A model generated the notes under the pieces. The model was not told the DNA's origin. It saw only the letters and a program-made list of their open reading frames with translations, and searched no databases. The translations under genes and the position numbers were made by a program. Shown here piece by piece: positions 15,498 through 51,976 of a stretch of DNA of 64,000 bases. The stretch is from a virus: positions 1 to 64,000 of the IMG/VR virus record IMGVR_UViG_3300037333_000056; one strand, written 5' to 3'. Position 1 is the stretch's first letter; every line of letters begins with the position of its first letter.

Positions 15498-15508
15498 AGG
15501 AATAATTT

Positions 15509-15988: not shown

Positions 15989-15993
15989 ATACC

Positions 15994-16277: not shown

Positions 16278-16311
16278 GTTACAAAAAAGCTTTTAAAACA
16301 AGGAGACTAAA

Positions 16312-16850: not shown

Positions 16851-16852
16851 AT

Positions 16853-17927: not shown

Positions 17928-17936
17928 AAAAATGTT

Positions 17937-18437
17937 ATGTCGTATAATTACATAAGAACAATTAATGAATACTTAGAACAAAAGAAGAAGAAAGGAACTA
18001 CAGCAGGAGGAAGAATGTCGTTCAGCAATGATGTTCTATATTCGTATGACTCAGTACTAGCTATAATTGATAAGAAAAACAATATATTGCTTATTGACAA
18101 CAGTATAAGCAATATATCGAACACATCAAGAAAACACGCAAGGATATTGCTAAGTGAAAATATGGGGCACGAATACTCAGTACTAGCAATAGCGTACATA
18201 AATAACTATAGAGAATCAGCACGTATATTGGGTGATAACATAGAGCACTGCATACAAAAAGCAAATAGAGCAAGAACAATGCATACTAAAGAGAAATGGA
18301 AAGAAAAATCTATTAGCAAATATATGATGTTGAAACTATTATCAAATACTTATTTAGATAAAAGAACAAAAGAGTATAGACTTAAAGATAAAGCATTTAA
18401 ATTGCTATTTGAAAACAATATGCTTACAGTACAATAA
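17937..18437 (+). CDS. Hypothetical protein
   Basis: 166-aa ORF in the operon. Confidence 0.6.
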   Translation: MSYNYIRTINEYLEQKKKKGTTAGGRMSFSNDVLYSYDSVLAIIDKKNNILLIDNSISNISNTSRKHARILLSENMGHEYSVLAIAYINNYRESARILGDNIEHCIQKANRARTMHTKEKWKEKSISKYMMLKLLSNTYLDKRTKEYRLKDKAFKLLFENNMLTVQ

Positions 18438-18449
18438 TAAAGGACAAAT

Positions 18450-19625: not shown

Positions 19626-19635
19626 AGGCAAGATA

Positions 19636-21039: not shown

Positions 21040-21060
21040 AGAATTTAAAAAAGGAAAAAA

Positions 21061-22056
21061 ATGATTGTACACGGGATAAATATCGATGAAGTTGTAAAGC
21101 TTATACCTAAGTCAGGAAGCAAGACATCACCTAAAGACGACAAATACAATATGACATATAGACTTGCTTTGCTATCAGAAATGAACAGAGTATATACGTT
21201 AAGAAAATTTACTGGATACAATATAGATATTGCAGAGGCGAGAAATGACGCAGTGAAGTATTGGATGATAGATGGCGGAGTGCAGTACAAGAACGATGCG
21301 AAAGATAACAGATGGAGGTTTAGATTTAAAAACAGCACAGAACAAAAACTTAAAGAAGTGGAAGATGCAATAGCATCAAAATGCTTAGACTCACAGCTTA
21401 AATACTTGCCAAACTCAATTACATACAGTAAAATACACAAAATAAACAGAAAAAAAAGCAAGGAACTAGATATTTCTCTAAATAACTTCTCACTTAGTAT
21501 GTTTAAAAGCAAAACAAAAAATAAAAATTTTTCATCTACAGAAGTAATGACATATATAGAAAAGCTAATAGTGGAAAATAACGAAGTAGATGCACATGGT
21601 AAAGAAGTAGAGATTCTTGAAGAATATATTAATTATATGCTTGACAATACAAAAACTGTATCATATGAGCTAATAAATGTTCTGTCAAAATTAACATATA
21701 AATATAAAGATACTATAAAAATAAATATTGGAGTGTTATCAATTGGAGCGATAAATAGATACACTCGTAAAGACAATAATAAATTTTTAACTCAAAATAA
21801 AATATTAAACATAACATCGTCAACTCCTATATCAACAAGATCTTCAAAGCCAAAAGAAAAGAAATATCATGGAGAAGAATATTATATTTACGCATTATTT
21901 CTTGAAATGTATCCAGAGTATCCAAAGTGTAAAGAGTTAAAAGACTGGTTGTATAAAAACATAAACTTATCGGAACATAAATATAAACGAATGGACAATG
22001 CAATAGCTGAAGTAAATAAAAGAATAGATAGCACACAAAGAAGGAAACAAAAATGA
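21061..22056 (+). CDS. Hypothetical protein
   Basis: 331-aa ORF, AAGGA RBS. Confidence 0.65.
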   Translation: MIVHGINIDEVVKLIPKSGSKTSPKDDKYNMTYRLALLSEMNRVYTLRKFTGYNIDIAEARNDAVKYWMIDGGVQYKNDAKDNRWRFRFKNSTEQKLKEVEDAIASKCLDSQLKYLPNSITYSKIHKINRKKSKELDISLNNFSLSMFKSKTKNKNFSSTEVMTYIEKLIVENNEVDAHGKEVEILEEYINYMLDNTKTVSYELINVLSKLTYKYKDTIKINIGVLSIGAINRYTRKDNNKFLTQNKILNITSSTPISTRSSKPKEKKYHGEEYYIYALFLEMYPEYPKCKELKDWLYKNINLSEHKYKRMDNAIAEVNKRIDSTQRRKQK

Positions 22057-22886
22057 TACATGCAGATTTAAGAGATGACATAGTAAATATTGACAAGTTT
22101 AAGTATATGTCATACATAAAAAAAATAAACAACATGAAAACGAAAAAAGAAAGAACAGAATTCATTACAATGTTGTCATGGGTAATATATAAAACTGATA
22201 AAGCTGAATCATTTTCAGAGTACACAAGGATTACGTCACTATGTTTAAGCAGTAAAGATTTAAATAAATTTATAATGAGATACAAACTATTTAAACTACT
22301 GTATTCAAAAAGCAGACTTGCTACAGAGCCACGTGTTGTAGATAAACTAGCACACAGAATAGATAAGGTATTTACATGTGGACTATTGACTCACGATATA
22401 GATATTAGCCCAAAAGAATTTATGTCTATATTTGAATTTGGAGGAACTATAGATATTGGGAGAAAGGAAATAGGTGTTGACGTAATGTGTGAATTCATAC
22501 ATAAGATTGAAAATGTATATGACGAAAACAAACTTATTGAGAATTTCATATTAGGCACTATAATTAGTGAATTTGATGGAGGAAGCGGAATAAGATATGG
22601 AAGAGTAGAACAGAACAGTAGGTATAAAGAAATAGATATTCTAAGGAAAATAGGATACGTAAAACAATATTCATCTAACAACATAGCTAAAAATGGTAAA
22701 AAGTACATAGAGATACTACTAAAGAGTCTTGAGCAAAAGTTAAGTAGCATTGATACAAAAGAAGATATTACATGTGAAAACATAAAGGAACTAAAAATTT
22801 CACTATCGATGTATAATAAACATATAGTTGATGAGTTAAGAAGAGTAAGAGAATATGATAAATTATTTGGAGATATATATGCATAA
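22053..22886 (+). CDS. Hypothetical protein
   Basis: 277-aa ORF, ATGA overlap. Confidence 0.65.
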   Translation: MIHADLRDDIVNIDKFKYMSYIKKINNMKTKKERTEFITMLSWVIYKTDKAESFSEYTRITSLCLSSKDLNKFIMRYKLFKLLYSKSRLATEPRVVDKLAHRIDKVFTCGLLTHDIDISPKEFMSIFEFGGTIDIGRKEIGVDVMCEFIHKIENVYDENKLIENFILGTIISEFDGGSGIRYGRVEQNSRYKEIDILRKIGYVKQYSSNNIAKNGKKYIEILLKSLEQKLSSIDTKEDITCENIKELKISLSMYNKHIVDELRRVREYDKLFGDIYA

Positions 22887-23325
22887 TATTAAAGAAATTA
22901 AGTTAAAAAATTCTGAAGGAACAGAGCTTGTAACTAAAAAGCAGACACTATATGGATACAAAAAATTTTTTGTTAATACAGGAAACAAGATAAACATATA
23001 CAAGCAAATGATATTGCACACAAAGAGGTCAAATACAAAAATATGGAAATTTTTAACTGAGACTGCAAATCTAGAGGACGATGTTATTTTAATAGTTGAT
23101 GAATTTGAGGAATTAAAAAGAAAAGCATTAAAAGAAAAGGAGAGTATTATAGAAAAAAAGCTAAAATCAGCTCTCGACATTAAAGACTTTATTTTATTCC
23201 TTAATTACAAAGGAGCTGATGTAACAAATATGTATTATGAATATATAGGCAGAATTCAGAGTGATGATGTTCCACACAGAAACACTAATAATCAACACGT
23301 AGAAACAGCAATAGAGGAATTATAG
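22879..23325 (+). CDS. Hypothetical protein
   Basis: GGAG RBS before MHNIK. Confidence 0.6.
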   Translation: MHNIKEIKLKNSEGTELVTKKQTLYGYKKFFVNTGNKINIYKQMILHTKRSNTKIWKFLTETANLEDDVILIVDEFEELKRKALKEKESIIEKKLKSALDIKDFILFLNYKGADVTNMYYEYIGRIQSDDVPHRNTNNQHVETAIEEL

Positions 23326-23717
23326 TGACAAAGAAAGAACTAGAAGATAGAGTATCAGAACTAGAGACTGAACTAATCTTCGAAAGAAAGAAAATATCAA
23401 GAATGTCTGACACAATAATTAGTGTAACAGAGCATATGAAAGAGCTATCGAAAAAAAATATAAAATCTTCGTTATCAACTAACAATGCAGAACCAGAAAA
23501 GAAAAGAAATTGTAAGCACGGGTTCTTCGTAAAAGAAGGAAATGAAACAGATACATCGAATATGCTATTCATAGAAGTGCTTGGAGATCTTGATATGTTA
23601 AAAGATTCAGAACAAAAGTGTAAGACACTATTTACATTCAAGCCAGAGGACCTACAGAACTGGTTCGCACAGATAAGTAAAATAATGAAGGAGAAGCAAG
23701 CAAAATGCAAAACATAA
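23325..23717 (+). CDS. Hypothetical protein
   Basis: GTG start with GAGG RBS. Confidence 0.6.
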   Translation: MTKKELEDRVSELETELIFERKKISRMSDTIISVTEHMKELSKKNIKSSLSTNNAEPEKKRNCKHGFFVKEGNETDTSNMLFIEVLGDLDMLKDSEQKCKTLFTFKPEDLQNWFAQISKIMKEKQAKCKT

Positions 23718-31349: not shown

Positions 31350-32021
31350 ATGGCAGAACCAATATTAGTATTGGCAAAATCAGGATCTGGAAAAACTACT
31401 TCGCTTAGGAATTTAAACCCTAAAGACGTAATGGTTATCCAACCAAGGAAAAAGAGGCTTCCTTTCCCAAATAATGGATGGAACAAATGGGATAAAGACA
31501 CCTCAGAAGGGTCAATATTTCAAGTAAATACATTCTCTGGAGTTAAAGCAGTGCTTGCTAAAATGCAAGAAGTAGGGAAGAAAGTTGTAGTTATAGACGA
31601 CTTTGTCTATATCATGGCTCAAAGAGTAATGGACGATATAGACGACAAAGGATACGACAAATGGACTCAGCTGGCTGCAGACTTTAACAGTATGATGACA
31701 TTTATTGACGACATGGACGAAAATATGAGAGTGTATATTTTAACACATACAGATAGCGATGAGATGGGTAATGTAAAAATGAAAACAGCAGGAAAGCTTA
31801 TTGATAACCTATTGACTCCAGAAGGAATGTTCAATATAGTATTTGGTATGGCGAAAACTGATTCAGATTCATTCTTTCTAACTAAGGGATCTACAATGGA
31901 TCCATATAAAACTCCAATGGGAATGTTTAAAGACAAACAGATTCCTAACGATTTAAAAATGGTGGATAATACTATTTGCGATTTCTATGGCATAGACAAT
32001 AAATTAACACCTGTTTCTTAG
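31350..32021 (+). CDS. AAA_24 / Sak4-like ATPase (N4 gp44-like)
   Basis: AKSGSGKTTSLRNL, VVIDD, KGYDKW, KTAGK, KTPMGMF..IPNDL. Confidence 0.88.
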   Translation: MAEPILVLAKSGSGKTTSLRNLNPKDVMVIQPRKKRLPFPNNGWNKWDKDTSEGSIFQVNTFSGVKAVLAKMQEVGKKVVVIDDFVYIMAQRVMDDIDDKGYDKWTQLAADFNSMMTFIDDMDENMRVYILTHTDSDEMGNVKMKTAGKLIDNLLTPEGMFNIVFGMAKTDSDSFFLTKGSTMDPYKTPMGMFKDKQIPNDLKMVDNTICDFYGIDNKLTPVS

Positions 32022-34924: not shown

Positions 34925-35551
34925 ATGAGTAACATTTTTGACGAATTAGGATTAGACGCAGCAGCATACACAGAGGCAGAAGCACAAGAGGTATCATCAG
35001 GATTTGAGGTATTACCATCTGGTTCTTACGTAGCTGAAGTAAAACTACTTGCAACATTTACAACTGAAAAAGGTGCTGGTATGATGCTAGCAGACATAGA
35101 AGTGACAAATGGAGATGATAAACGCACAATTACAGTGTACCAAAACGTTAAGAAAAAGAATGGTGAGGCAAACCCTATTGGAACTGCTACATTCAAGCAT
35201 ATCATCGAAGCAACTGGTTCTGAGATGGCAGCACTGACAACAAAGAAAGAAACAATTAAAGCATATGGTAAAGACGTAGAAGGTACTGTTGTTAATGGTA
35301 TTGCTGGAAAGAAATTATTGGCTCTAGTAAGACACGTATTTGCTGAGGGTGAAGACTACGAAAACTTCAATGAGATTGAAGGATATGTAAAGACAGACGG
35401 TACAAACTCAAAAGGCGAAAACCAGCTTGATGCATTTAAGGAAAAGATTGAAAAGAATCCTATTCTAAAAAGAAAACCGAAAGCAGGGGCTAAACAACAG
35501 TCCACTACAGATGCAGGAACAACTGCAGCCGACGTAGCCAGCATGCTATAG
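34925..35551 (+). CDS. Single-stranded DNA-binding protein (N4 gp45/DUF669-like)
   Basis: FEVLPSGSY.A.V, ENFNEI; synteny with the gp44-like ATPase. Confidence 0.7.
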   Translation: MSNIFDELGLDAAAYTEAEAQEVSSGFEVLPSGSYVAEVKLLATFTTEKGAGMMLADIEVTNGDDKRTITVYQNVKKKNGEANPIGTATFKHIIEATGSEMAALTTKKETIKAYGKDVEGTVVNGIAGKKLLALVRHVFAEGEDYENFNEIEGYVKTDGTNSKGENQLDAFKEKIEKNPILKRKPKAGAKQQSTTDAGTTAADVASML

Positions 35552-38038: not shown

Positions 38039-41000
38039 TTATCCTACTATCTGAGGGAAAAATGCATCGCTACTTAGTAGTGGGGCATTTATAAAATCTA
38101 ACCCATTTCCATCAAAATGCTTTCCAAACATCTTAACAATTATGTTGCTATCAATTATTGTATCTGGATGGATATCAATAAACTGTTGAATACTTGTACC
38201 AAATGCAACTCCAGCTGGATTAGCCTTTACAGTAGCAAGTATTACTTTCTGAATCCTCATCCAGAATGATGGGAATAGCAGAACACCATAATCACTTAGT
38301 GCTTTTACTTCTTTAGGCATATTTATTTTGTAATCAACAAATGATTCAAGAGTAATTTTTATTGCATCATGCTCGCTTTTGCCTTGAGCAATAAGAGTGT
38401 CTAGTAATATTTTCCTTGACACTATATCTATCGATTGCACAGCAAACGATCCAAATCTTACCATTGCACTATCTGGCGAGGCAATAAACTCTGATATGTA
38501 TTTTGCCATATCTCCAGTCTTCTTGTTGTGCTCTATTCTATCTCCAGACTCAATTAGATTATCACCAAAAGATTGCAATGCTTTAAAGTTTTTAGCACTT
38601 TTGCCAGCAAACTGCAACAGCGTCTCTACGTTCATGCTTTGGTGACCACTTTGAGATAGGGCTTTAATAGCTTTTGCAAGACCGTTATTTTTACCATTGC
38701 TGTCTTTCAAGAACTTATTTAATAATGATTCTATGTCGTTTTGTAGACCAGAAATAACAGACTCATCTTTATTCATTACTTCAACTGATATTGATTGCAT
38801 CATTCCAGTATTTAACATTATTGCCATAGGATGTGTTTTTATTGACTCTTTGACGCGTTTAAGTTTGTTATCAACATCTTCACCAGAATACTTTTTTATC
38901 TCAAGCTCTAGTTGTTTTAGTCTTAGCTTTTCAAGTGATTTCATATCTACTATAGACTCTTTTATTAGCCTTGGAATTTCTTGAACTGGAACACCATACG
39001 CTAGTAATATTGCAACGTTTGATGTTGTGTCTCCAAATATTTTTGGAATATTTGTGATTACCCAATGTATTTTGGTTAACTTTACTGCTTGTCTTATAGC
39101 AAATGCTGCCTTTTTGAGCGAATCATTATTGCTAAACAACACAGGATCGTTAAACCCTATAGCAATGTCTGAAAAATCCTTTCTTACTAGATGAAGATGC
39201 TCGTTAATACCACCTACGGTTGTGACATTTGATACTACTTTATATCTGTCTCCTATTAGTTTATGTGTCTCAAGAACCTCTTTTGCAGTTGAAGAATCTG
39301 GCAAGCTTAAAAACAATGGAATATCTTTTGTATCAATATCTGCAAGGTCTTCTTCAAGCTTATCTATTGACGAACTTGTCTTTAGATATTTTGTCATAGT
39401 TTGACTAAGCAATTCATCTCTTGCAGCTTGAGTATTATGTATTTCAATTGACCTACCATACGACCTTACAATAGCATCAGCAGGGTTCTTGTTTAGTCCG
39501 AGAAGATCTAATTGATCAGGCGTAAGAACTATTTTTTGAAATGAGCCTTTTAAAGTTTTGATGCTGTATACATTATTCATGCCTTTCAGCTCTTTATCTT
39601 TTGGAACAATTATGTCTTGGTTGAGGTAGTGGACACTTGTTCCTGCTCCTTCTTGGCTTGTTTGTTCGACTCTGTCTCTGTATACTATTCCGTAGTCTTT
39701 TGATGTAGGCTTTTGAAGTATTCTCCATCCAGATTCTTTTGTGTAATCATTATGGTTAAGATCTTTCTTTGTTACAATAGCAAATTCTTTTGGAACAGTA
39801 AATGATTCATATAACAGGTTCTCTTTTCCAAGCATTTTATCTTTAGTTGTAGCATACATCTTATTGTGTGAGCCAAACATTCCAGCGGATAGTGTCATTA
39901 ATTCTGATGCAAATTTTTTATTCTTTCTTAATAGCTTAAATGCATTCTCGTACTCTCTTACAGTATTTCCTTCTTTATTTATACGTGTATTCTCTTTTAT
40001 GCTATATAGTGCAAGAAGTGCTCCTAGATTTAGACGCTCTGCACTATCTTGTGGATGCATTTGTGCAATATTGTATGCGTCAGTGGTTCTTGATGGAGTT
40101 CTTTTGCCAGCGTATATCTGTGCCATTGCTCTTATTCTGTGTATCTTGCTTGTATTACCTATTTTAGACTCATATTCTTTTATGTATTCATCAATTGCTA
40201 TTGTTATATCTCCTGCACGCTTATTTATAAGATTACTCATTATCTCGTTAGAACCAATAAGGTAGAAAATTGGAGATCTTGCAAAGGTATAGTATATGTT
40301 ATCCTTGTCTCTGTCTGACATATGCTCCATAAGTTTATTTAGTTTAGATATTTTATTATCTTCGAATTGCTTACGTTTTTGTGCACTTGTCATTGTGAGC
40401 GTAATTGCACTGTTTAAGCTATCAAATGTTCCTAGCCTACCCCAAGTATCAAGATATCCTTTTAGTGACTGTAGCCAGTCAGCTGAACCCCAATAGTCTT
40501 CTGCTCTATCAAATTGCATTTTATATACGTCAAAATTTTGATACATAAACTCATGAGCTTTTGCAACTCCAGATTCAGTCTTTGGACCTATAGTGCTTGT
40601 ATATATATCTCCAAGGCCATTTGATATACTCTTGTTTAACATAAATAGAGATTTATCAAGGATTGAATCAATATCAACCTTATGTTCTTTACCTTTATAT
40701 ACATAGCTCATTGTTTCTTTTAGAGATTCTTCAGCTTTCTGTTTTGTATCTTTTGGCTGAGAATCAGTACTAGAACCAGCGTGCACGGTATTTGTTATGT
40801 CGTCTTCTTTTTTGTTTTTATCTTGTTTTTTTGCCTTGCCACTACTAGATGAACTCTTGTCATACTTTTCATTATATGTTCCGTACACTACATCAACAGT
40901 AGCGTCAAGTGTGTATTCTTTCCCGTCTAAATGAGTTATTTTATTATAGTTTTCTCTTGCATGCTTTCCTGTCATAAAAGGTTTTATTCCATTGTCTTTA

Positions 41001-44000
41001 TTGACATAATCTGTTATATGAAGAGGCGTTCCATCAGGTTGCCTAGAATACACTGTTCCATTTGCCTCAACAAGAACAGTTCTGTATTCCATATCATCAT
41101 TCTTAAAGTGCCCGATAACAGTTACTTTAGCATTATCACCTTCCTTGCCAGGAATTTCTGGGCCATAACTATACTCGCCCTCAGGATTAAAATTAAATGT
41201 TATATGCTTTCCATCACTAAGCTTGAACTGACTAAATAATTTAATCTTGTCTCCATTTATAAACAGTGCATTAAATTTATTGCTGATCTTTTTGCGGATA
41301 TTTACACCTTTACCTGCGTTGTTAAATCTTACTCCGGATGCCATAACTCCATGTATTGCAAGCTTAAGTATGTCTGCATCTACAATTTCTTTTGAACTAA
41401 TCTCGTTGAATTGCTTATTCGTTACTTTTGATATTCTACCTTTTATATTGTTCCATAGTTTGATAACATTATTTTTAAGAGTTGTAGATGTAATGTTTCC
41501 ACTCTGCTTATTTATATGTTTTATTGCAGCATATGTCAATTTTGCCGTAGAGTCCTCTGCTACCATTACTGCTTCAAATTCAGCAGTCCTATGCAGTTCG
41601 TCTTCTATCTTAAGCACGTCCTGTATACGTTTAGGAAGCTTATTTATTACTTTTTCGTCAAGTCTTGAAAGTATCTCTAGTGTCTTTTTTATATATTTTG
41701 CATTTTGATCAGATTTTCCACTCGCAGAATATAAGTACCCAACAGTAGAATAGTGAACTATCTCGTGTGCTATTGCAGTTTCAATATCTAGGCCAGAACC
41801 AGACAGTGATTCTTTTGTACCTATAGTAATTCCATGTACGCTAGGGTCATACGAGAATTCAGAACCAGATGTGAGAGACTTAACATTTTCACTTTTTATG
41901 AATTCAGATATTATTTGATTATCTTTATACTTATTTATGTCAAGTGTTTTGTTCTCTGCTCTTTTTACTAATTCTCCTATAATATTAGATAGGACTTCAA
42001 CATCGTGCGATGCATCATGTGCCTTACCATCTTTTTTTACACCTAATAGACTTTCTACTGCAGATTGCGTCCTATCAAACTTTGTTCTGTTGTTACCTTT
42101 GTTGTCTACAAATTCAACGTCATCTTCATTTGAGTCTCTTAGCTCGCTAACAGCAAGCAATTTTGCATCAAATATTTCAAATTTGTTTGATAGAAGTTCA
42201 TCTACGCCAGAATATGATGACAATATATCGAAGTCAGACTTTATACCATTGTATGCAATTATTGGAGTCTTTCCTCCATCAACGCTTAATGATTCAAGAG
42301 CGTCTCGTATTGATTTTGCAACACTATCCTCGTTGTATTCTTTTGCTGAGTCAGGTATGTCTCGCTTATATTCACTGTACTCTTTCATATCAAGTATAGC
42401 ATCGAAGTCATTGCTTGACGGCTTATATTCGAACGTTACAGGATCTCCATCTTGTACAATTGTGCCATTTTCATATTTATATTTTCTTGCGTACAGCTGT
42501 AGTAGTTCTTTTGATTTTCCGCCTTTAGCATGGTCATATCGTCTTTCGTCGCTAGGGTCAAATGTATTTTCAATATCTATTACAACAACAGGTTCTCCAC
42601 TAGAGACAATATCAATTATCTTGTTAGCGTGATCTGTTACAAACTCTGATATTTTATCTCCATCTATAAATGGTCTATCTTTATGTCCAGTAGGAGTTAT
42701 TGCATATGTATCAAGATATTCACTGCTTATTTCGTCTTTCCATGACGATGTATCTGCATCATTGTTGTTGCCGTTGTTATTATTATCATTTTCTGTAACG
42801 TCTATATAAGTGTCTTTTTTATCTGATTCTATATCATTATTATCCAACCTATAGTTTTCTTTGCCTGCAATATTGTTTCCATTAAACCCAAACAATAAGT
42901 GGTTCTCAGACATACCAGCATTATATACATACTTCTTGATGAACTTTCTTTTTTTATCTATTTTTTCACTGACAGAATCAAGATTGTTTGTGTTGTCTAT
43001 AAATATTGACTTCTTTATTTGCTCTGCAGAAATAATATTTTCATCATGTCCAACATCTGCTATCTGATCCTGAAATGAATCATATAGCAGAACCAGTTGC
43101 TCGGATATATCATATTCATAGTTTATTTCAGATGTAAGTTTTTGATACTCAACATCATATATGTCACCATACACTGGTACACTATGTATAGCATCATATA
43201 TTCCAGCTGTACCATTCTGAAGTACATTTAGCAGGTCATCACGATCATTCTCAAGTGACCTGATGTACTCATTGTCAGATCCATCAATCCTGTTTAGTTC
43301 ACGTACCTCTAGGTTTATATCAAGTATCTTTTGCTTAATTATGCGTCTTGTGTTTCTGTGTGCTAACTTTTCTAGTCCTGAATCTATGCTATGTATACCA
43401 GATACTGCTGGAATTAATCCATTTGATAGCTCCTTCTTTATAGGAACATATCCAGCTCTGTCAGATTCTACAAGAACCTGTCGCTTAGAAGTTATTGGCA
43501 TTCCGTACTGCTTAATCATTTTCATGTACCATGCTCTATACTCAGGAGTACCTTTTGCAGTAATCTTTAAGTTATCTTCACTATGTGTTTTGCCATATAA
43601 GATATGGTCAGGATTACGTTCTACTCCATTGTCATCAGTATTACTTTCTGTTATTATCATCCATGTTCCTGCAGGAATTATCATCCTAGGGAACCTGTCG
43701 GCAGCATCATGATAGTGTTTACTTGCGTCAGAATAGAATGTGTCTATATTTCTGTAATATGAGCTTAGATCATTCTTGTATGCAGTAGTAGCTTGACCAA
43801 GCGTGCTATCAAGTAGCCCAGCTAGCCTATCAACTAACCCAACACCTTCCTGTGCAAAGTATGCTTGAATTGCAAGATAAACTCCAGGTATAGCAGCAAA
43901 ATCTAATTCAGTATGCTTAGATAGATCTAAAACATTTTCGTACTTATGAAGTTCTGCAGATTTATACAGATCTTCGTCAACTTCTTTTATTGATGAAACA

Positions 44001-46441
44001 AGTAAGTTTAGTGCTGAAACCCTATCGTTAGTGCTTCCACTTGTTGCGGCAGTATCTAAGTACTCAAATACATCATTAGTCATGTCTCTTGATGCAGACG
44101 CTCTTGTCCCAGCAGCCCCTGCTTGATAGTTTTTAACCATAGTAACTGGCTTAAGCATGTCGCGTATAGATCCAAATATTCCAAGACTTGTAAACTTAGA
44201 CATTACAGTAAAAGTTGATTCATCGGTATCTTCTTCTTGAGAGTTTGCATGTTCATCGTCTACTGCTTTTCTTAGTATTGCATATGCATCTGCAAGATAT
44301 TCATCTTCACTAAGATCTTTTCCAGAATCCTTTGCAATCTTCATTTTGATAAGTAAATCTTTTATCATCTCATCAGCCACATCATTAGAGCCTAGTGCTT
44401 GATATAATGTCAATATTACACCAGAAGCAGTTGCATCAGACTTGGTTCTGTAATGAGTGGTTATTTTGTCAGATCCTGATTCTTTTGCACTTCTAATATC
44501 AGATATTGCAGATAAAGAGTCTATTGCTGACCAAACGCTCTTGGTTTTGAATTTAAACTTAGTTGCTTTTCCGGAAACCATTATTTCATTTTTAGCAAGT
44601 ATCTTCATTAGCGTTGACATTGCTGACACTCTTTGATCACTAGTTAACTCTTTATTCTGAGTCTTTCTAAATAGCTTAACAAGATTATCTAATGGCTTAT
44701 TTATTCCTTCGTTTTCTATAGCTTGATACCGCTTTATCTCTTCTTGTATTTCACTTGATCCTATGAATTCGTCGACTATAGAACCGAACACCTTGTAATA
44801 TGCAGATGTTCCAACTTTAAAGCTTGACTCTCCGCCAGAAACTATTGACCTAGACATTTTGTCTGATATTTCATTAAGTACATTTGATGTTGGCATTGAA
44901 CGACTATTTCTTACTATCTTATGCTTCTTTACATATTTTTTCCCATCTTTGAACCTGTCGAATGTAATAAGTAGATTTGCTAGTGGAGTCTCTTTAGAGA
45001 TTGACATGCCGACCTCATTATCTACTCTTTCCTGCGTCAACGCACCATCATATGAACCAAAAATCTTATTCTTAAGTGCTACATCTTTTATTCCAATAGA
45101 TTCATACACTTTATTTAGAGAGACCTTATCATCTATTCCAGAATCATTATTAAACACATTGCTCATACTTGATAAAAGGTCGTTGAATATTGGGTTAATC
45201 ATATTTTCTGTTTTTGAAAGACCAACCTTGTCTTCAGTAAATATTTTTGCATACTCATCTGGAACTCCAAGATTTTGCTTTCCATCATTGCCAGATCCTT
45301 GCTCTACAGTAAATAATTGATTTTTTAATTCAGTAGGAACTCTATATTTTTCATTTGGAGGGATTGTATCGTCTGCGGCATCAAGTTCTTCTTTTTTTAT
45401 TAGCTTCTCAATATAGCTATTGTTTGTTGGTGCTTCCATATTTTGAGTTGTTGTCATCTTATTTATTGCTTGTGATGCGTTATACGTTGCCTGCAAAACT
45501 GGATATGCAGTTATTTTTTTAGTATTAAAAGAACCAGTGTTTAGAATCTCTGCAACAGTATTCTTGTCTTCAGGTTTTGTTGATTTTCCTAATAGCTTTG
45601 TTGTGTTTATATATATAGCATCTGCACCGTCAATAATTGGTTCTACACTTATATTGCCTCCAAACATATCTTTAAAGTTATTATTTAGTGTTTGTCCATT
45701 CTCTATTACTTTAACTAACCCATTACCGTATTCATCTACTGCAACCTCTGTTAGTGCATTAACTGCAGATTTTCCTATTGATATATACGCTTCATTAGCA
45801 GATATTGTGTCTGTCTCAAACTTGATTCCAGATGCTATTGCTATCTGCCTACCTATTGCTCCATACAGATTAATTGAACTAAGAATTGTTGTTCCATACT
45901 CAGATTTTAGAGTATCTTTTACAGACAACTTATCTTCTGGAGACAAGTTGAGATTCTGTAATATATGATTTTCTGCTTTTCCAGCATTTGCTATTGCATT
46001 AAATGCTATACCTACAGCACGCATAGTTGAACCTATAGTTCTTATCTCCTTATTTAGGAGCTCTTCATTTTCATCTTTTGATAACTTATCATTATACTTA
46101 TATCCTACTGGATCTACTCCATCTATATCTAGTATTCCGTCGAATAATATATTTGCTGAGGTGTTTCCTATCTTTGTTCTTGACTTGTTTATTGCACTAT
46201 GTATAGCAGATTTTATTTTTGGAATCTTTACTTCGCTATCAAGCTTAGACATAATCTCTTCTTTAATTGAAGCATCAATATTTGACATCATGTATACATA
46301 GTCTTCTGCTTTAATAGACTGAATATTCCAAGCAATAGGAGTGCTGCTTCCTGAACTATTATCCAATACTGCAGATTTCATTCTTATTTTGCCAGTCTTA
46401 GTATTTAATAATATCTTTGCATACTCTTTACATTTTCTCAT
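38039..46441 (-). CDS. Virion-encapsidated RNA polymerase (N4 gp50-like) with accessory domains
   Basis: 2800 aa, nearly Cys-free; motif A DATASG, motif B RDMLK...NYQAG, motif C IYDAI; N4 late-module position. Confidence 0.88.
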   Translation of the reverse strand: MRKCKEYAKILLNTKTGKIRMKSAVLDNSSGSSTPIAWNIQSIKAEDYVYMMSNIDASIKEEIMSKLDSEVKIPKIKSAIHSAINKSRTKIGNTSANILFDGILDIDGVDPVGYKYNDKLSKDENEELLNKEIRTIGSTMRAVGIAFNAIANAGKAENHILQNLNLSPEDKLSVKDTLKSEYGTTILSSINLYGAIGRQIAIASGIKFETDTISANEAYISIGKSAVNALTEVAVDEYGNGLVKVIENGQTLNNNFKDMFGGNISVEPIIDGADAIYINTTKLLGKSTKPEDKNTVAEILNTGSFNTKKITAYPVLQATYNASQAINKMTTTQNMEAPTNNSYIEKLIKKEELDAADDTIPPNEKYRVPTELKNQLFTVEQGSGNDGKQNLGVPDEYAKIFTEDKVGLSKTENMINPIFNDLLSSMSNVFNNDSGIDDKVSLNKVYESIGIKDVALKNKIFGSYDGALTQERVDNEVGMSISKETPLANLLITFDRFKDGKKYVKKHKIVRNSRSMPTSNVLNEISDKMSRSIVSGGESSFKVGTSAYYKVFGSIVDEFIGSSEIQEEIKRYQAIENEGINKPLDNLVKLFRKTQNKELTSDQRVSAMSTLMKILAKNEIMVSGKATKFKFKTKSVWSAIDSLSAISDIRSAKESGSDKITTHYRTKSDATASGVILTLYQALGSNDVADEMIKDLLIKMKIAKDSGKDLSEDEYLADAYAILRKAVDDEHANSQEEDTDESTFTVMSKFTSLGIFGSIRDMLKPVTMVKNYQAGAAGTRASASRDMTNDVFEYLDTAATSGSTNDRVSALNLLVSSIKEVDEDLYKSAELHKYENVLDLSKHTELDFAAIPGVYLAIQAYFAQEGVGLVDRLAGLLDSTLGQATTAYKNDLSSYYRNIDTFYSDASKHYHDAADRFPRMIIPAGTWMIITESNTDDNGVERNPDHILYGKTHSEDNLKITAKGTPEYRAWYMKMIKQYGMPITSKRQVLVESDRAGYVPIKKELSNGLIPAVSGIHSIDSGLEKLAHRNTRRIIKQKILDINLEVRELNRIDGSDNEYIRSLENDRDDLLNVLQNGTAGIYDAIHSVPVYGDIYDVEYQKLTSEINYEYDISEQLVLLYDSFQDQIADVGHDENIISAEQIKKSIFIDNTNNLDSVSEKIDKKRKFIKKYVYNAGMSENHLLFGFNGNNIAGKENYRLDNNDIESDKKDTYIDVTENDNNNNGNNNDADTSSWKDEISSEYLDTYAITPTGHKDRPFIDGDKISEFVTDHANKIIDIVSSGEPVVVIDIENTFDPSDERRYDHAKGGKSKELLQLYARKYKYENGTIVQDGDPVTFEYKPSSNDFDAILDMKEYSEYKRDIPDSAKEYNEDSVAKSIRDALESLSVDGGKTPIIAYNGIKSDFDILSSYSGVDELLSNKFEIFDAKLLAVSELRDSNEDDVEFVDNKGNNRTKFDRTQSAVESLLGVKKDGKAHDASHDVEVLSNIIGELVKRAENKTLDINKYKDNQIISEFIKSENVKSLTSGSEFSYDPSVHGITIGTKESLSGSGLDIETAIAHEIVHYSTVGYLYSASGKSDQNAKYIKKTLEILSRLDEKVINKLPKRIQDVLKIEDELHRTAEFEAVMVAEDSTAKLTYAAIKHINKQSGNITSTTLKNNVIKLWNNIKGRISKVTNKQFNEISSKEIVDADILKLAIHGVMASGVRFNNAGKGVNIRKKISNKFNALFINGDKIKLFSQFKLSDGKHITFNFNPEGEYSYGPEIPGKEGDNAKVTVIGHFKNDDMEYRTVLVEANGTVYSRQPDGTPLHITDYVNKDNGIKPFMTGKHARENYNKITHLDGKEYTLDATVDVVYGTYNEKYDKSSSSSGKAKKQDKNKKEDDITNTVHAGSSTDSQPKDTKQKAEESLKETMSYVYKGKEHKVDIDSILDKSLFMLNKSISNGLGDIYTSTIGPKTESGVAKAHEFMYQNFDVYKMQFDRAEDYWGSADWLQSLKGYLDTWGRLGTFDSLNSAITLTMTSAQKRKQFEDNKISKLNKLMEHMSDRDKDNIYYTFARSPIFYLIGSNEIMSNLINKRAGDITIAIDEYIKEYESKIGNTSKIHRIRAMAQIYAGKRTPSRTTDAYNIAQMHPQDSAERLNLGALLALYSIKENTRINKEGNTVREYENAFKLLRKNKKFASELMTLSAGMFGSHNKMYATTKDKMLGKENLLYESFTVPKEFAIVTKKDLNHNDYTKESGWRILQKPTSKDYGIVYRDRVEQTSQEGAGTSVHYLNQDIIVPKDKELKGMNNVYSIKTLKGSFQKIVLTPDQLDLLGLNKNPADAIVRSYGRSIEIHNTQAARDELLSQTMTKYLKTSSSIDKLEEDLADIDTKDIPLFLSLPDSSTAKEVLETHKLIGDRYKVVSNVTTVGGINEHLHLVRKDFSDIAIGFNDPVLFSNNDSLKKAAFAIRQAVKLTKIHWVITNIPKIFGDTTSNVAILLAYGVPVQEIPRLIKESIVDMKSLEKLRLKQLELEIKKYSGEDVDNKLKRVKESIKTHPMAIMLNTGMMQSISVEVMNKDESVISGLQNDIESLLNKFLKDSNGKNNGLAKAIKALSQSGHQSMNVETLLQFAGKSAKNFKALQSFGDNLIESGDRIEHNKKTGDMAKYISEFIASPDSAMVRFGSFAVQSIDIVSRKILLDTLIAQGKSEHDAIKITLESFVDYKINMPKEVKALSDYGVLLFPSFWMRIQKVILATVKANPAGVAFGTSIQQFIDIHPDTIIDSNIIVKMFGKHFDGNGLDFINAPLLSSDAFFPQIVG

Positions 46442-46452
46442 TATATTCCTTA

Positions 46453-49400
46453 TTATCTTTTAATACAGAAGGTAAATTCTTCTTCAATCAATGCCTGTTT
46501 TTCACTATCTACAAGCTCTTCATCTGATATTATATCGTACAACTCTTCAATCTCGTATTCATTTTCAATCTTCTCATTGTGTGATAAATATACTATTTCA
46601 TCTTTGTTCTTTTTTATATTTTTAATCTCTTCTTTTAACTCACTCTTCCTTCTTATCTGTTCTATGTCTGCGTTTCCAGAGTTTATTTCCTGTTCGATTC
46701 CAAGCAACTCACTTTCAATTTTGTATTGCTTCTTATCTAGCTTTTTCATCTCTTTATCTATCTGTTTTGAGCTCTTGATTAGTTTAGTGTTTCTATATAT
46801 CTTTTTTTGCTTACTTGTTAGCTCAGTGTCTGTTGCATTAACGCCTCTAGCATTAATTACTCTTCTAAATATCTCAGCCTCTTTGCTTGTTATATTCTTT
46901 GCATCTTCTGCTACATTTATAAGATTATGAACAAATTCAACCTCTTGCTTTGATCTGATACTGCTCTTTTTTGCATACTTCAGTATAGTATTATATGCAT
47001 CAATATTATGGTTGTCCATAAGATTTGCATCTATGATTTCATCGTTTTTTGCAGATTTTAGTCCAGTTGCAGCTTCGCCTATTATTGCAACAAGTGTTTT
47101 GTTATATTCTTTTGGACTAGAGTTTTCATCTGAGTCAAAAACTATATTTAGACTGTTTATCGCAGACTTTAGGTTCTCAGCTTTCTTTTTGTCTAAACCA
47201 GAGCTGTTGTATAGTTTTTCGGCTACATCCTGCAGGAGACGCATTCCTTCATCTTGAGATGTTATTGCAAGGCTATATGAACGCATTATTCCCTGTATTT
47301 GGTCAATAACTTCGTTTGAATACTTATATGTACTCTTTTTTGCAACCTCTGATGATATATTTTTAAGAACGTCTCTCGTGTGTATATTCTTTGATGAGTT
47401 TATCCTAGTAGCAAAGTCTTCACCATCCTGCTCCTCAACTTTTGCTATTTCTATTCTAGCAGCATTTCTTGTTTTAAATACTGATTCTATTGCAGCTTTC
47501 ATTGCCTTACTTGCAGACGGATCATTAAAGGCTTCCTTTAGCGACTCATCTGAATATGTTCTTATATTCTTTTCTATCTTGCTTTTTGTCCCAAATGATC
47601 TCAATTTATGCATGAATGTTTTAGGGTCACTTTTGTACTCGTTTACATCTATCTTGTCATTACTAAACTCATTTACAGCAGAACCTGACGACAATGCTTC
47701 TTGTCTCTTTATCTTGTGTCCATCTAACCTATCAAGCCTTGCTTGAATTGTTTTTGCTAGAGTATCAGCTTTATTGTTTATAGCGTTTACTTGTTCATGA
47801 ATAATACCATTGTCTTTATCAAATACACTCTTTTCTACTGTGTATAGTGGACTATACTTGCTGTTTCCTACAGTATGTAATCTATCCATTGAATATATAT
47901 TTGTTCCAGGAAGAAATATTTCTCTACTAGTGCCACTGGTTCTTGTATTGTTGTCAATTTTATGCATATCTCTTTTTTGCTCTGGAGTAGCATTAAGATA
48001 CAGTTCCTTCATGTATGCCTGACGCTCATCTGTATCCATAAGACTTATTTTCTTCATAACTTCTTCATCAACAGCACCAGAATCACCAAGAATTTTGTCT
48101 TTAACACCTAAAGCGTTAAGAGTTTCAGTGGTTATAAAACTTGATTTTGAAAACTCTTCAGCAGCTTTTTCGTTATACTCATCATTATTGTCGAACACTG
48201 ACAGCATAGATTGCTCTCTTATTGCATTACCTAAGTCTCTTACTTCAGGTATTGCTGAGTCTGTTAGCTCTGATATGTCTTTTGCTTTTTTTGTTGCTTC
48301 TACTGCGTCTTTCATTATATGCCAGTTATCTTGCATAACTTCAATATCTTTAGACTCATTTGCAGCATAAAAATCAAAATCAGTTTGATCCATATTGTTA
48401 ACCATCGTATCGATGTTTGCTTTAGCTCTTTTTTCTGCAATTTTTGTATTAACAGATTTTGCAAAACTTTTAGCAAAAGACAAAGAGCTTGAAGGAGCTT
48501 TTGGCACCATATGCATCAATCCACCTGCTCCAGCACCAGCTATTGCAGCTTGAAACGCTTGGCTTCTATTCTTTTCGTCACGCAGAATGTCTTCGACATC
48601 CTTTTCGCTTATTCCATATTGTTGTCCAATTATCTCTCCCCATGTCTGAGTATACTCTTGAAATCCTTCCTCAGTCATACTTGCTAATGCAGAACCAGTT
48701 TTATTCAATAGCTTGTTTGTAAAAAATGGCTTTAGAGTATCTGGCATTTTGTTATATGACGACTTTAATATTGACGTTGTTGGCTTTGTTGCTTTTGACA
48801 ACTTACTTATTCCAGATACGTGATCAAAGGATAGCTTATCAAGAAGTGTAAAAGGCATCTCGAATGCATACAGTGCTGTAGCTTCTCCAACACTAACTGA
48901 TGGATCTTCTCCTGCTTCAAGCTTTGCCTTTATTCTCTCATCAAGTATTCTGTTTGTGTTTACTAAGTTTATTGTCTCGACTCCAGCACCTTTAGCAAGC
49001 AAGTTTAAGCCTTTAAGCATCTGCTCAGAGTCTTTGTATTTATTGTATACGCTCAACTCTCTAGGCTTAAACGATGCCTTTCCTACATCAACTATTTTCT
49101 TTATATCAGATGCTGATGCCCCAGCAGCCTTTGCTTTATTTACGTTTGCAACCAATCTTAGTGCTCCAGCTGTACCTGATACTTCACTTACGCCTATAGA
49201 CATACCAGCCATGTACGGTAACGACTCAGCTACGAATGACGGTGCAGACTGTGCAACACTCCATAGTCCAGATGCTATATCGCCACGATTAAACGCAGCT
49301 TCAGCTTCTACAACTTTACTTTGAGCGTAATGCCTATCATATCCAACAAATTTATCTGCCCATTCTTGCTGATAATCATTAAGAAGCGTGTTGTCATCAC

Positions 49401-50418
49401 CAGGAAGCAGGTCAAGCAATGCGTCTGCTGTTCCAGTTACGAGACCAAGTGCACCAGCCTGAAACGCGTCAACGAAGTTACTATCCCATGGACGACTCCT
49501 ACTGTGCTGATACATAAATTTTGATCGTTCAAGGTTTCTAGCATAATCTTCACTTGTTCCAGTATCTAATCCTAGAAGATCTTGATCATATAGTTCTGTT
49601 TTCCCTGCACCAAAATTTATACCTGATGCTTCATCTCTAGACTTTAGCCCATCAGGAGTCATAACCTTGTCAGATGACATTACTCTATGGTCAAGGTTCT
49701 CGTCAAGTGCATGCCATTTGTTTTCCCAATCGAGTGCTCCAGCAAATTTCTTTTCACCAATAAGTTCCCATCCGTCTTGAGTATATTGGTCTTTGTATCT
49801 TCCGTATGCACCATCATGTGCATATCCAAGCTTATAGATATATTTTGTGCTTCCATCGTCATTATATCCATCAAATTTCCTAAGGTTATATACTCCACCT
49901 TCAGCATCAGGATTATCTTCTGCATTATTATATTGATCTATTAAGTCTTGCCTTGTTAACCCTTTAGCTCCAATAAAGTCTTTATTCTGCATATTATACT
50001 TGCGACCATTTCGTTCAGCCTGAAATCCATCTCTATGGGTTATCCAGTCCCCTTGACCATAATCGAGTACATTTTCTGTTGCTTCTAAGAACCAGTCTAC
50101 GGCGTGTATCCCAGCATTAGCAACTTCTTTTGCTCTGAGCATTGAGTCGCTGTCATTAATGAGTGTTCCATCTTGCTCATACTTGAGATCAGCTTTTCTA
50201 TATATTGACTTACGCTTTAACTCTGCAGCTCTAGCAAGCTTTGTTCTCCTGTCAAATTGTGCATCTAATTGTTCTATGTCATATTCAGATTGAGCTATTG
50301 CTTGCTGTAAATATGGGTCAATTGAAACATCAGGCTCTTTGTCGTACGGAGTATACTCTCCAGTAGTATCATCTATATATCCTTGTGGTTCATCGTCGTA
50401 TATGTAGTCTTCTGCCAT
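46453..50418 (-). CDS. Large ejection protein, probably the split N-terminal part of vRNAP; contains a GIY-YIG-like segment
   Basis: 1321 aa, nearly Cys-free, hydrophobic Gly/Ala helices, directly upstream of vRNAP. Confidence 0.65.
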   Translation of the reverse strand: MAEDYIYDDEPQGYIDDTTGEYTPYDKEPDVSIDPYLQQAIAQSEYDIEQLDAQFDRRTKLARAAELKRKSIYRKADLKYEQDGTLINDSDSMLRAKEVANAGIHAVDWFLEATENVLDYGQGDWITHRDGFQAERNGRKYNMQNKDFIGAKGLTRQDLIDQYNNAEDNPDAEGGVYNLRKFDGYNDDGSTKYIYKLGYAHDGAYGRYKDQYTQDGWELIGEKKFAGALDWENKWHALDENLDHRVMSSDKVMTPDGLKSRDEASGINFGAGKTELYDQDLLGLDTGTSEDYARNLERSKFMYQHSRSRPWDSNFVDAFQAGALGLVTGTADALLDLLPGDDNTLLNDYQQEWADKFVGYDRHYAQSKVVEAEAAFNRGDIASGLWSVAQSAPSFVAESLPYMAGMSIGVSEVSGTAGALRLVANVNKAKAAGASASDIKKIVDVGKASFKPRELSVYNKYKDSEQMLKGLNLLAKGAGVETINLVNTNRILDERIKAKLEAGEDPSVSVGEATALYAFEMPFTLLDKLSFDHVSGISKLSKATKPTTSILKSSYNKMPDTLKPFFTNKLLNKTGSALASMTEEGFQEYTQTWGEIIGQQYGISEKDVEDILRDEKNRSQAFQAAIAGAGAGGLMHMVPKAPSSSLSFAKSFAKSVNTKIAEKRAKANIDTMVNNMDQTDFDFYAANESKDIEVMQDNWHIMKDAVEATKKAKDISELTDSAIPEVRDLGNAIREQSMLSVFDNNDEYNEKAAEEFSKSSFITTETLNALGVKDKILGDSGAVDEEVMKKISLMDTDERQAYMKELYLNATPEQKRDMHKIDNNTRTSGTSREIFLPGTNIYSMDRLHTVGNSKYSPLYTVEKSVFDKDNGIIHEQVNAINNKADTLAKTIQARLDRLDGHKIKRQEALSSGSAVNEFSNDKIDVNEYKSDPKTFMHKLRSFGTKSKIEKNIRTYSDESLKEAFNDPSASKAMKAAIESVFKTRNAARIEIAKVEEQDGEDFATRINSSKNIHTRDVLKNISSEVAKKSTYKYSNEVIDQIQGIMRSYSLAITSQDEGMRLLQDVAEKLYNSSGLDKKKAENLKSAINSLNIVFDSDENSSPKEYNKTLVAIIGEAATGLKSAKNDEIIDANLMDNHNIDAYNTILKYAKKSSIRSKQEVEFVHNLINVAEDAKNITSKEAEIFRRVINARGVNATDTELTSKQKKIYRNTKLIKSSKQIDKEMKKLDKKQYKIESELLGIEQEINSGNADIEQIRRKSELKEEIKNIKKNKDEIVYLSHNEKIENEYEIEELYDIISDEELVDSEKQALIEEEFTFCIKR

Positions 50419-50536: not shown

Positions 50537-51976
50537 TTATGGCTTATATGTTCCAGCCTCTTTCTCTGCTTTTATTCTATCTGCTTTTGTTTTCTTGTAT
50601 TGTTCTCTTTTTATCTTTAGCTCAAGTAGTTGTTTTTCTGTAGGATTTTTTAATCCCTCAAGCTCGATGACTCTTTTATTTAACGCAATCTCTTTTTCTT
50701 TTTTTATTGCAAGGTTATTTTCAAACACCTTGTGCCCAACGTATGTCTTTTCTTTTCTTGCAGCTTCTCGTCTTTTTTTTGCTTCTGCTGCCTTTACATT
50801 TGCTCTTGCTACGTGCCCAGCCATATCAGAGTTCTTTTGCTCTCTCAGTACTTTAACCTTAGCTAGCTTTTGCTGCTGAGTTAAGCCTGGGTCAGATATG
50901 ACTCCATTAATTCTATCTGTATACACATTATACAGTTTGTTCTCATACTGTCTTGTGCTCATTGTTGCAGGAACAGTTTCAGTCTTTTTTGCATATACTG
51001 GAGTAGAATATTTTTTAGCAATAGCTGCTTGCTTCCCATAGAATGCATCATACTCTTTACGCGTTTTGTCGTTTTCTTCTTTTTGCTTTTGCAATGCAAG
51101 TATACGTTTTCTTGTAGCAGAATACAGATCTGAATTATCCTTTTTTTCTATCCTATGCTTATCTTCCCATTCAGCTTTTTCGAGATCCGTTGAGAACATT
51201 CCAGGTTTATCCCACCATCTGTTTATCGATGGCATAATTTTAGACTCAGCGTATCCTATAGCTCCACCAGCAAGACCACCGGCAATACCACCAGTGGCAG
51301 TACCGGCAAGTGCACCAGCAGACATTCTGCTAGCTGTATATGGATCAGGTAATATTGAATCTGCTGTAGTCTTTCTGTTAGTGTCTGTTCCAAAAAACAT
51401 TGACTTTTGTTCAAGAAACTTAAGCTCTTCTACTTTTCTTTTTGCAGGATCTTTTATTGAATTTATTTTGTTCCAGCCTGAAAGTATATCTTTTTGTACG
51501 CCAGTTATCTTTTTATCAGAAGCAACATCTTTCGGTGCATATGTTCCATTTTTTGTTAATATGCTTAATTCACTATCTATTGAGTCAGTGTCGTACTCTT
51601 CTCCAGTAATATTATCTTTATCATCAACAGTTCTAGTAACGTCAGTAATATCACTAACAGGCTTAGATATGTTTGCTAACGCATCAAGTAATGCAGCATT
51701 TTTGCTTTCCTTCTCTTTTCTATTGGCACTTGCTCTAGCTTCTTCTCTAACATTTGCATCTTTTCTCATTTGAAGTTCATCTAGTTTTAATTGATAGTTT
51801 CTATCAAGTTCTGCTTGTCTTGCTGCCTGCTCAGCGTCATATCTATCGTTCTTTAGCTTCTCATCCTCATGCCTCTTTAATGCTCCTCCAAGATTTTGCA
51901 GCGACTGATAGAAGCCATTTCCCAAGTTATAACTTATTGCATCTGGAAGTTTTACTACTCTATCAAATCCAGGCAT
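50537..51976 (-). CDS. Virion ejection protein (N4 gp51 position)
   Basis: Cys-free, glycine zipper, coiled coils; synteny. Confidence 0.6.
   Translation of the reverse strand: MPGFDRVVKLPDAISYNLGNGFYQSLQNLGGALKRHEDEKLKNDRYDAEQAARQAELDRNYQLKLDELQMRKDANVREEARASANRKEKESKNAALLDALANISKPVSDITDVTRTVDDKDNITGEEYDTDSIDSELSILTKNGTYAPKDVASDKKITGVQKDILSGWNKINSIKDPAKRKVEELKFLEQKSMFFGTDTNRKTTADSILPDPYTASRMSAGALAGTATGGIAGGLAGGAIGYAESKIMPSINRWWDKPGMFSTDLEKAEWEDKHRIEKKDNSDLYSATRKRILALQKQKEENDKTRKEYDAFYGKQAAIAKKYSTPVYAKKTETVPATMSTRQYENKLYNVYTDRINGVISDPGLTQQQKLAKVKVLREQKNSDMAGHVARANVKAAEAKKRREAARKEKTYVGHKVFENNLAIKKEKEIALNKRVIELEGLKNPTEKQLLELKIKREQYKKTKADRIKAEKEAGTYKP

Follow-up and report, generated by a model that had tools for sequence, protein, structure and literature searches.

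The window analyzed here comprises the first 64 kb (64,000 nucleotides) of IMGVR_UViG_3300037333_000056, a linear IMG/VR virus record of 73,659 bp which represents an uncultured metagenomic contig. Its minus strand carries an open reading frame (ORF) of 2800 amino acids (aa), P0001, at positions 38039-46441. Translation of this ORF, profile and tblastn matches and an N4-like gene neighbourhood revealed that it is a divergent N4-type virion RNA polymerase (vRNAP). A domain with the predicted fold of a DEDDh 3'-5' exonuclease is embedded in it at aa ~1258-1500 (41942-42670). All coordinates given below for parts of P0001 refer to the minus strand.

The C-terminus of P0001 matched PHROG 2206 "virion RNA polymerase" with an E-value of 5e-23. 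In a tblastn search, aa 1935-2751 aligned with the annotated RNA polymerase (RNAP) of Alteromonas phage vB_AmeP_PT11-V19 (E 4e-41), and shorter C-terminal matches were obtained in 119 records of N4-like phages with a vRNAP annotation, including those of Alteromonas, Vibrio and Pseudomonas phages. Altogether, the C-terminal ~870 aa resemble annotated vRNAPs; further upstream, aa 478-798 were aligned by BLASTP to the N-terminal half of the Alteromonas phage RNAP (E 8e-8). The Pfam vRNAP families PF21894, PF21769, PF21867 and PF21624 gave strong matches to N4 gp50 and none to P0001 at E up to 1; P0001 is therefore a distant member of the vRNAPs.

A single-subunit RNAP core was delimited at aa ~480-1185 (42887-45004) by motifs A, B and C, by an AlphaFold2 (AF2) model, by Foldseek and by BLASTP. 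The motif residues, namely D669 in motif A (SDATASG), R760-x3-K764-x7-Y772 in motif B and D1083 in motif C (IYDAIH), are invariant in a 12-sequence alignment (A2). The AF2 model of aa 480-1215 reached a predicted local distance difference test score (pLDDT) of 79 and a predicted template modelling score (pTM) of 0.79. Its best matches in the Protein Data Bank (PDB) were structures of the N4 mini-vRNAP (3c2p, 2po4, 9pnq; E ~2e-5, probability 1.0), followed by mitochondrial and T7 RNAPs. The C-terminal C2-like domain (38042-40756), which corresponds to the encapsidation region in N4, was identified by tblastn and has 11 homologues at 26-55% identity. From the homology of this domain and the position of the gene among structural genes, we infer that P0001 is packaged in the virion and ejected.

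The first-pass annotation, made from the letters of the sequence, had proposed a DEDDh exonuclease domain at 41960-42610 (aa ~1278-1494) with three readable Exo motifs. All three motifs were found in frame in the single 2800-aa ORF, and the proposed span falls within the domain as delimited here by a local hidden Markov model (HMM; envelope 1259-1506), an AF2 model, Foldseek and VIA-align comparisons and the BFVD database. VVIDIE corresponds to aa 1286-1291 (42569-42586) and contains the ExoI catalytic pair D1289-x-E1291 (42569-42577). IIAYNGIKSDFDIL corresponds to aa 1394-1407 (42221-42262) and contains ExoII, which reads N1398-x4-D1403 (42233-42250). KAHDASHDV corresponds to aa 1473-1481 (41999-42025) and holds ExoIII, H1475-x4-D1480 (42002-42019). 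The histidine H1475 is the ExoIII general base, the "h" of DEDDh, which distinguishes the domain from DEDDy enzymes. The conserved aspartate of ExoII is D1403, the D of KSD-F, and not the second D of "FD", which varies in homologues (D/N/S/Q/V). The spacing N-x4-D is that of Escherichia coli Orn, whereas RNase T and DnaQ have N-x3-D. ExoI reads D-I-E-N-T-F and lacks the usual T-G after the glutamate.

An exhaustive HMMER search of 1.84 billion cluster representatives yielded four relatives of the exonuclease domain, all of them giant proteins: P0003 (42% identity), P0004 (35%), P0005 (28%) and P0006 (31%). In the alignment of P0001 with these four distant homologues (A1), D1289, E1291, N1398, D1403, H1475 and D1480 are invariant in all five sequences (columns D42, E44, N151, D156, H228 and D233, respectively). 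The ratio of nonsynonymous to synonymous substitution rates (dN/dS), determined between the sister contigs L004 (which encodes P0003) and L005, was 0.146 for the exonuclease and 0.105 for the RNAP core. The exonuclease domain is under purifying selection. When the protein was shuffled 5000 times, a loose ExoI/II/III pattern, defined post hoc, appeared in 9 cases (0.2%), and the short motifs alone are weak evidence for an exonuclease.

An AF2 model of the exonuclease region (m32257d90f8ee) was built on the five-sequence alignment. It reached a mean pLDDT of 64.6 and a pTM of 0.67, with core blocks at 80-90 and two long loops of low confidence at residues 47-63 and 97-117 of the exonuclease-region sequence (P0002). 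The modelled topology is DnaQ/RNase H-like (beta1-3/alpha/beta4/alpha/beta5/alpha); D1289 and E1291 are located on the strand E38-47, and H1475 and D1480 where the last long helix begins. A Foldseek search with this model retrieved RNase T (E 1.4e-6, probability 1.0) and also exonuclease I, TREX1/2, Maelstrom and Pop2. VIA-align superimposed 162 residues on exonuclease I with a Z-score of 13.7 and a root mean square deviation of 3.8; further Z-scores were 12.9 for the Pol III epsilon subunit, 12.8 for RNase T, 11.5 for Orn, 11.2 for TREX1 and 11.1 for Cap18. Among the predicted viral structures in BFVD, standalone phage DEDDh exonucleases were the best matches, and the look-alikes in the ESM-Atlas were viral clusters named "oligoribonuclease family" of ~230-250 aa with a score of 0.95.

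The domain search suggested along with the first-pass annotation thus retrieved DEDDh folds by structure, but sequence profiles of Pfam and the PDB gave no match. For aa 1248-1514, the searches covered Pfam with the whole protein and with the domain, PDB with phmmer, and a PDB profile search. RNase_T (PF00929) matched neither the domain at E up to 10 nor any of the six frames of the whole record. Comparison of the exonuclease family with E. coli Orn, RNase T and DnaQ by hhalign was not significant, and the domain can therefore not be assigned to a DEDDh subfamily. T4 DexA was considered as a donor family and rejected, as the resemblance is at the level of motifs and the BLAST, HMM and hhalign scores were not significant. 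Because no sequence profile detects the domain, the DEDDh assignment rests on motifs, conservation and predicted fold, and at this level it is well supported.

The exonuclease follows the polymerase core after an Asn/Asp-rich linker of low complexity (aa ~1186-1257, 42671-42886), which includes NDNNNNGNNNDAD and shows pLDDT values <50 both where the core model ends and where the exonuclease model begins. Behind the exonuclease lies a zincin-like module, CTD-C1 (C-terminal domain subdomain C1; aa 1505-1715, 41297-41929), which was identified by a local HMM and by its single HExxH motif and is published for N4 gp50. The placement of the exonuclease between the polymerase core and an HExxH motif, as originally described, agrees with this arrangement of an N4-like core fold before the domain and the C1 module after it. 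The motif HEIVH corresponds to aa 1559-1563 (41753-41767). Exactly one HExxH was found at the equivalent place in 16 of 16 vRNAPs examined, including N4 (HELVH, 2228) and the Alteromonas phage (HEIVH, 1086). A C1 HMM covering ~200 aa around HExxH recovered 14 of the 15 vRNAPs then in the set; P0003 was missed, and the match to N4 was not significant. BLASTP with C1 aligned residues 1041-1225 of the Alteromonas RNAP (E 2e-4) and residues 2180-2241 of N4, the latter on HELVH.

The zincin-like metallopeptidase (MPTase) domain of N4 gp50 has already been described (PMC5512222), and the 2026 paper on the N4 structure defines the same module as CTD subdomain C1, residues 2124-2375 (PMC13434306). HEIVH therefore adds no novelty, since the module is published and present in every N4-like vRNAP examined. 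In N4, the linker between RNAP and CTD (2102-2123) is disordered and comprises 23 residues, with the domains arranged as beads on a string (PMC13434306). As HEIVH belongs to the common C1 module, the exonuclease sits in the equivalent of this disordered linker. Consistently, an occupancy map of a 15-protein alignment showed a block of ~250-300 residues at the linker site in carriers only, and motif A and HExxH lie 797-906 aa apart in carriers versus 504-672 aa in non-carriers.

A further insertion of ~180 aa (aa ~1716-1895, 40757-41296), specific for this phage, was located between C1 and C2 by BLASTP and by the length of the tail. BLASTP detected no counterpart of it in 15 other vRNAPs, and with its tail downstream of HExxH, P0001 exceeds the metagenomic relatives and the Alteromonas RNAP by ~115-245 aa. 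The insertion contains two H-I-T motifs (KHITF at 1746 and LHITD at 1808). As a separate observation, the region after the exonuclease in P0003/L004 (aa ~1507-1720) was not matched by the C1 HMM, and its HExxH reads PHEYAHHY versus the consensus AHEIVH(F/Y)xTxGYL; the zincin-like module of this protein may be replaced by a different one.

The distribution of the exonuclease among vRNAPs was examined with the local HMM, which detected the domain in P0001, P0003/L004, L005, P0004, P0005 and P0006 and missed it in eight closer metagenomic vRNAPs (P0007-P0013 and P0014), in the Alteromonas RNAP and in N4 gp50. Pfam showed no exonuclease family in the vRNAPs of N4, the Alteromonas phage and LUZ7. 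The first-pass remark that no exonuclease is known in canonical N4 vRNAP agrees with these results. Ubiquity in annotated N4-like vRNAPs, named there as a fact that would remove the novelty, was not observed in the vRNAP set, nor in a tblastn search of 50,697 phage genomes, which gave no match to the domain. A word-indexed search among giant proteins returned P0001 itself only, and a single-sequence scan of IMG/VR with the exonuclease domain returned nothing. Alignment-based scans of IMG/VR and of the JGI metagenomes both retrieved the same two contigs, L004 and L005.

In P0014, another domain at the same site passes the Pfam RNase_T threshold (25.6 bits versus a cut-off of 24). Its motifs are canonical (DLETTG, FNNVKYDD and HSALYDA), with the ExoII spacing N-x3-D of RNase T and DnaQ. 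The exonuclease domains of the P0014 type and the P0001 type showed no significant similarity to each other, and no additional giant protein came up when the P0014 exonuclease region was used as the query. Apparently, the two types were either acquired independently at one hot spot or have diverged very deeply. Counting P0014, seven carriers were found in the public databases searched, and the exonuclease adjoins the core in all seven. In a tree of the C2 region, of which the backbone is weakly resolved and P0014 stands on a long branch, the carriers fall into at least two to three groups, so that at least two to three gains or losses are needed.

Two further observations concern the carriers. 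P0004 (1831 aa) and P0005 (1780 aa) begin in the middle of the core, with motif A absent and the exonuclease at aa 475 and 390, respectively; either two genes encode the vRNAP in these phages, or the gene calls are too short. The vRNAPs of L004 and L005, which stem from one metagenome (3300026521), are 78-98%, mostly ~90%, identical over the first ~1900 aa and 97-100% identical over the last ~680 aa, and the synonymous divergence dS is 0.33-0.49 over the first part versus 0.07 over the last. This shift of identity and dS along the protein suggests a recent recombination within the C2 domain.

The window has a GC content of ~33%, and the coding strand changes at ~38 kb. An N4-like gene set was found which comprises genes for a major head protein, a virion structural protein and a tape-measure-like protein and, furthermore, for a primase, helicases, Sak4-like, single-stranded DNA-binding (SSB)-like and PD-(D/E)XK proteins and a ribonucleotide reductase. 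An AAA_24/Sak4-like gene (31350-32021), a DUF669 gene (34925-35551) and a PDDEXK gene (8741-9550) were counted as recombination genes. An "exonuclease" gene near the Alteromonas phage RNAP gene was also considered as a possible DEDDh enzyme and ruled out, as it encodes an AAA_24/Sak4-like protein. A nicotinamide phosphoribosyltransferase-like gene at 2764-4206 on the plus strand (PHROG 448, E 2e-110) represents an auxiliary gene for salvage of nicotinamide adenine dinucleotide in an N4-like phage.

The completeness of the record was estimated as 88% with CheckV. DNA_pol_A (PF00476) gave no match in the six frames of the whole record, and in the replication module (14000-23400 of the window) no ORF of DNA-polymerase size was recognized. 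The ORFs at 21061-22056 and 22053-22886 had no Pfam match, and the former had no PHROG match either. The DNA polymerase is either very divergent, or split, or encoded in the missing ~12% of the genome. A search of the first 9 kb for a repeated family of hairpin promoters gave nothing convincing, and the true left end of the record may be missing.

Directly upstream of the vRNAP gene, two ORFs of 1321 aa (46453-50418) and 479 aa (50537-51976) are located on the minus strand. The same order was observed in L004 (784-6247) and L005 (868-6283), in which ORFs of 476-480 aa and 1304-1324 aa are followed by a vRNAP of ~2576-2580 aa; in the Alteromonas phage, the RNAP is preceded by a 1000-aa ORF, to which the 1321-aa ORF showed no sequence similarity. 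By position, the 1321-aa ORF would be the counterpart of N4 gp51, an ejection protein, rather than a split-off N-terminal domain of the polymerase.

The reading we favour, and hold with middling confidence, is that the domain is an accessory, pre-packaged and catalytically competent DEDDh 3'-5' exonuclease which acts early in infection on nucleic acids or oligonucleotides with 3'-OH ends. It would be a metal-dependent module of the DnaQ/RNase T/Orn type, added as an extra "bead" in the flexible linker between the RNAP core and C1. The N4 virion contains 4 +/- 1 copies of vRNAP. At the ejectosome, this protein is held in the inner membrane by its N-terminal domain; RNAP and CTD regain their fold in the cytoplasm, where they form beads joined by flexible linkers, and transcription from early promoters pulls the DNA in (PMC13434306). 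By analogy, P0001 would be packaged in a few copies and ejected before the DNA, and would refold in the cytoplasm with its anchor at the site of entry. In this way, the nuclease would reach the cell at time zero, beside the entering genome and the transcribing polymerase. Its most likely role would be the removal, as infection starts, of 3'-OH-ended nucleic acids or short oligonucleotides, be they host-derived, defence-derived or abortive. N4-like RNAPs belong to the polyvalent proteins with variable effector domains (PMC5512222), and the exonuclease may be a cargo domain of such an ejected protein, in one class with the ART, lysozyme and PBECR RNase domains of other vRNAPs. In our view, the mechanism of transcription does not require it.

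The conserved active site and the purifying selection argue for a working nuclease. Accessory cargo is favoured because of this active site together with the patchy distribution, the second type of exonuclease at the same site and the private insertion after C1. We infer catalytic activity, substrate, biological role, packaging and ejection, and several points weigh against this reading. The exonuclease activity is a prediction, no sequence profile recognizes the domain, and its model, built on five sequences, is of moderate confidence with its mean pLDDT of 64.6. Packaging of P0001 is assumed from homology. A few copies per cell could hardly degrade host nucleic acids in bulk, so that a local role in cis is more plausible than that of a free "effector". 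For N4, processing of the vRNAP by the zincin module has not been reported (PMC13434306), and the nuclease therefore probably stays tethered to the polymerase. Finally, a patchy distribution can also result from the loss of a non-essential transcription accessory.

The main alternative would be a transcription-coupled nuclease acting in cis on RNA, which trims misincorporated or backtracked 3' ends in proofreading or restart, or removes abortive nanoRNAs before they can prime or inhibit initiation. We consider this rather unlikely, even though the exonuclease is tethered only ~70 residues from the C-terminal end of the core, its position beside the core is kept in all seven carriers, and a low copy number per cell would favour a local substrate (PMC13434306). 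The ExoII spacing of an oligoribonuclease and the ESM-Atlas look-alikes labelled accordingly also fit such a role, but the structural neighbours include both DNA and RNA enzymes, most N4-like vRNAPs, close relatives included, do without an exonuclease, and no model puts the active site near the 3' end of the RNA. No T7-like RNAP is known to use an exonuclease, which also counts against it. A role in cis on the RNA product or the template of the fused polymerase, by which P0001 would become the first DNA-dependent RNA polymerase of the single-subunit (T7/N4) type to carry a 3'-5' exonuclease of its own, appears doubtful.

Processing of the DNA ends of the entering phage genome, by trimming of 3' overhangs or by resection of the 3' ends of terminal repeats for annealing, was judged unlikely as well. 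The single-strand-specific DNA exonuclease I and the DNA-proofreading subunit epsilon are the top structural neighbours, P0001 is expected at the site of DNA entry (PMC13434306), and the window encodes recombination proteins (a Sak4-like annealase, SSB-like and PD-(D/E)XK proteins). However, on strand polarity a 3'-5' enzyme at the leading end would be expected to digest the template strand of outward-transcribed early genes, the domain is missing in most relatives, and the true genome ends are not readable in a linear record of 88% completeness. A resection of the leading end that would expose the template strand was rejected, likewise on strand polarity. The silence of Pfam RNase_T even at E 10 and an ExoI motif without T-G after the glutamate could indicate a degenerate, non-cleaving DEDDh fold which serves as a structural spacer or binds nucleic acids; with all five catalytic residues invariant over deep divergence and a dN/dS of 0.15, this is very improbable. 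As the record is an uncultured metagenomic contig, an artefact of assembly or gene calling could in principle have joined a separate exonuclease gene to the polymerase gene. We regard the chance of this as negligible, because six other proteins of independent origin (JGI, ENA, Logan), with 28-42% identity, show this architecture without interruption, and it was read directly as DNA, with no stops, in two IMG/VR contigs.

N4-type virion polymerases are the model for phages which start transcription with a protein they bring along, and the full-length structure has become available only recently. The disordered linker between RNAP and CTD is a site where whole enzymes can insert, and two or more different DEDDh exonucleases appear to have landed there. 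A nuclease would thus join the activities which such proteins carry into the cell as infection begins. Working together with the polymerase, it would represent a novel type of transcription accessory of single-subunit RNAPs; directed against host or defence nucleic acids, it would be a novel counter-measure packaged in advance. As a small, separable domain of ~245 aa, the exonuclease is open to direct expression and assay.

Compared with known DEDDh enzymes, the domain shares the predicted fold, the set D-x-E/D/H-x4-D and a length of ~200-250 aa with the N-terminal domain of exonuclease I, Pol III epsilon (DnaQ), RNase T, oligoribonuclease and TREX1/2. It differs from them in that sequence similarity is undetectable, in that ExoI reads D-x-E-N/W/Y-T/S-F/Y instead of D-x-E-T-x-G, and in that it is embedded in a polymerase of 2800 aa, whereas those enzymes are free proteins or associate with a DNA polymerase. 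Among viral structures, it is matched best by standalone phage DEDDh exonucleases such as T4 DexA and the exonuclease-domain protein of Caulobacter phage CcrBL9. The ExoIII motif of DexA, AHDSIHD, resembles AHDASHD in P0001, although significant sequence similarity to DexA was not found. Those exonucleases are separate products of early genes, whereas here the domain is part of a virion-type protein. The ExoN of coronavirus nsp14 and the arenavirus NP exonuclease are DEDDh nucleases tied to viral RNA synthesis and offer an analogy only, as they serve the RNA-dependent RNA polymerases of RNA viruses and lie on a chain separate from the polymerase.

P0001 shares with N4 gp50 (PDB 2PO4/3C2P; full-length 9PNQ/9PNT; PMC13434306) a T7-like core with motifs A, B and C, the HExxH-containing C1 module after the core, the large helical C2 domain and a neighbourhood of N4-like late genes. 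In N4, however, C1 follows the core directly after the 23-residue disordered linker, whereas P0001 has a low-complexity linker of ~70 aa and an exonuclease of ~245 aa at this place; furthermore, its N-terminal region has about half the length of that in N4, with motif A at aa 669 versus 1556. The polyvalent proteins (Iyer, Burroughs, Anand, de Souza, Aravind 2017, PMC5512222) likewise include giant N4-like RNAPs which are delivered together with the DNA and combine a zincin-like metallopeptidase with patchy extra enzymatic domains. For N4-like RNAPs, ART, lysozyme/transglycosylase and PBECR1 RNase domains are given there; a DnaQ/DEDD 3'-5' exonuclease is not named in the main text, in which "exonuclease" occurs in one reference title only. 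A literature search for a vRNAP with an exonuclease or DEDD domain found nothing, and a survey of N4-like viruses does not mention one either. With an RNAP core, a DEDDh exonuclease, a zincin-like C1 module and a private insertion on one chain, P0001 corresponds to the definition of a polyvalent protein (PMC5512222). No cultured phage or paper with such a fusion was found. P0001 is best regarded as a polyvalent vRNAP of the N4 type that carries a cargo domain not listed before.

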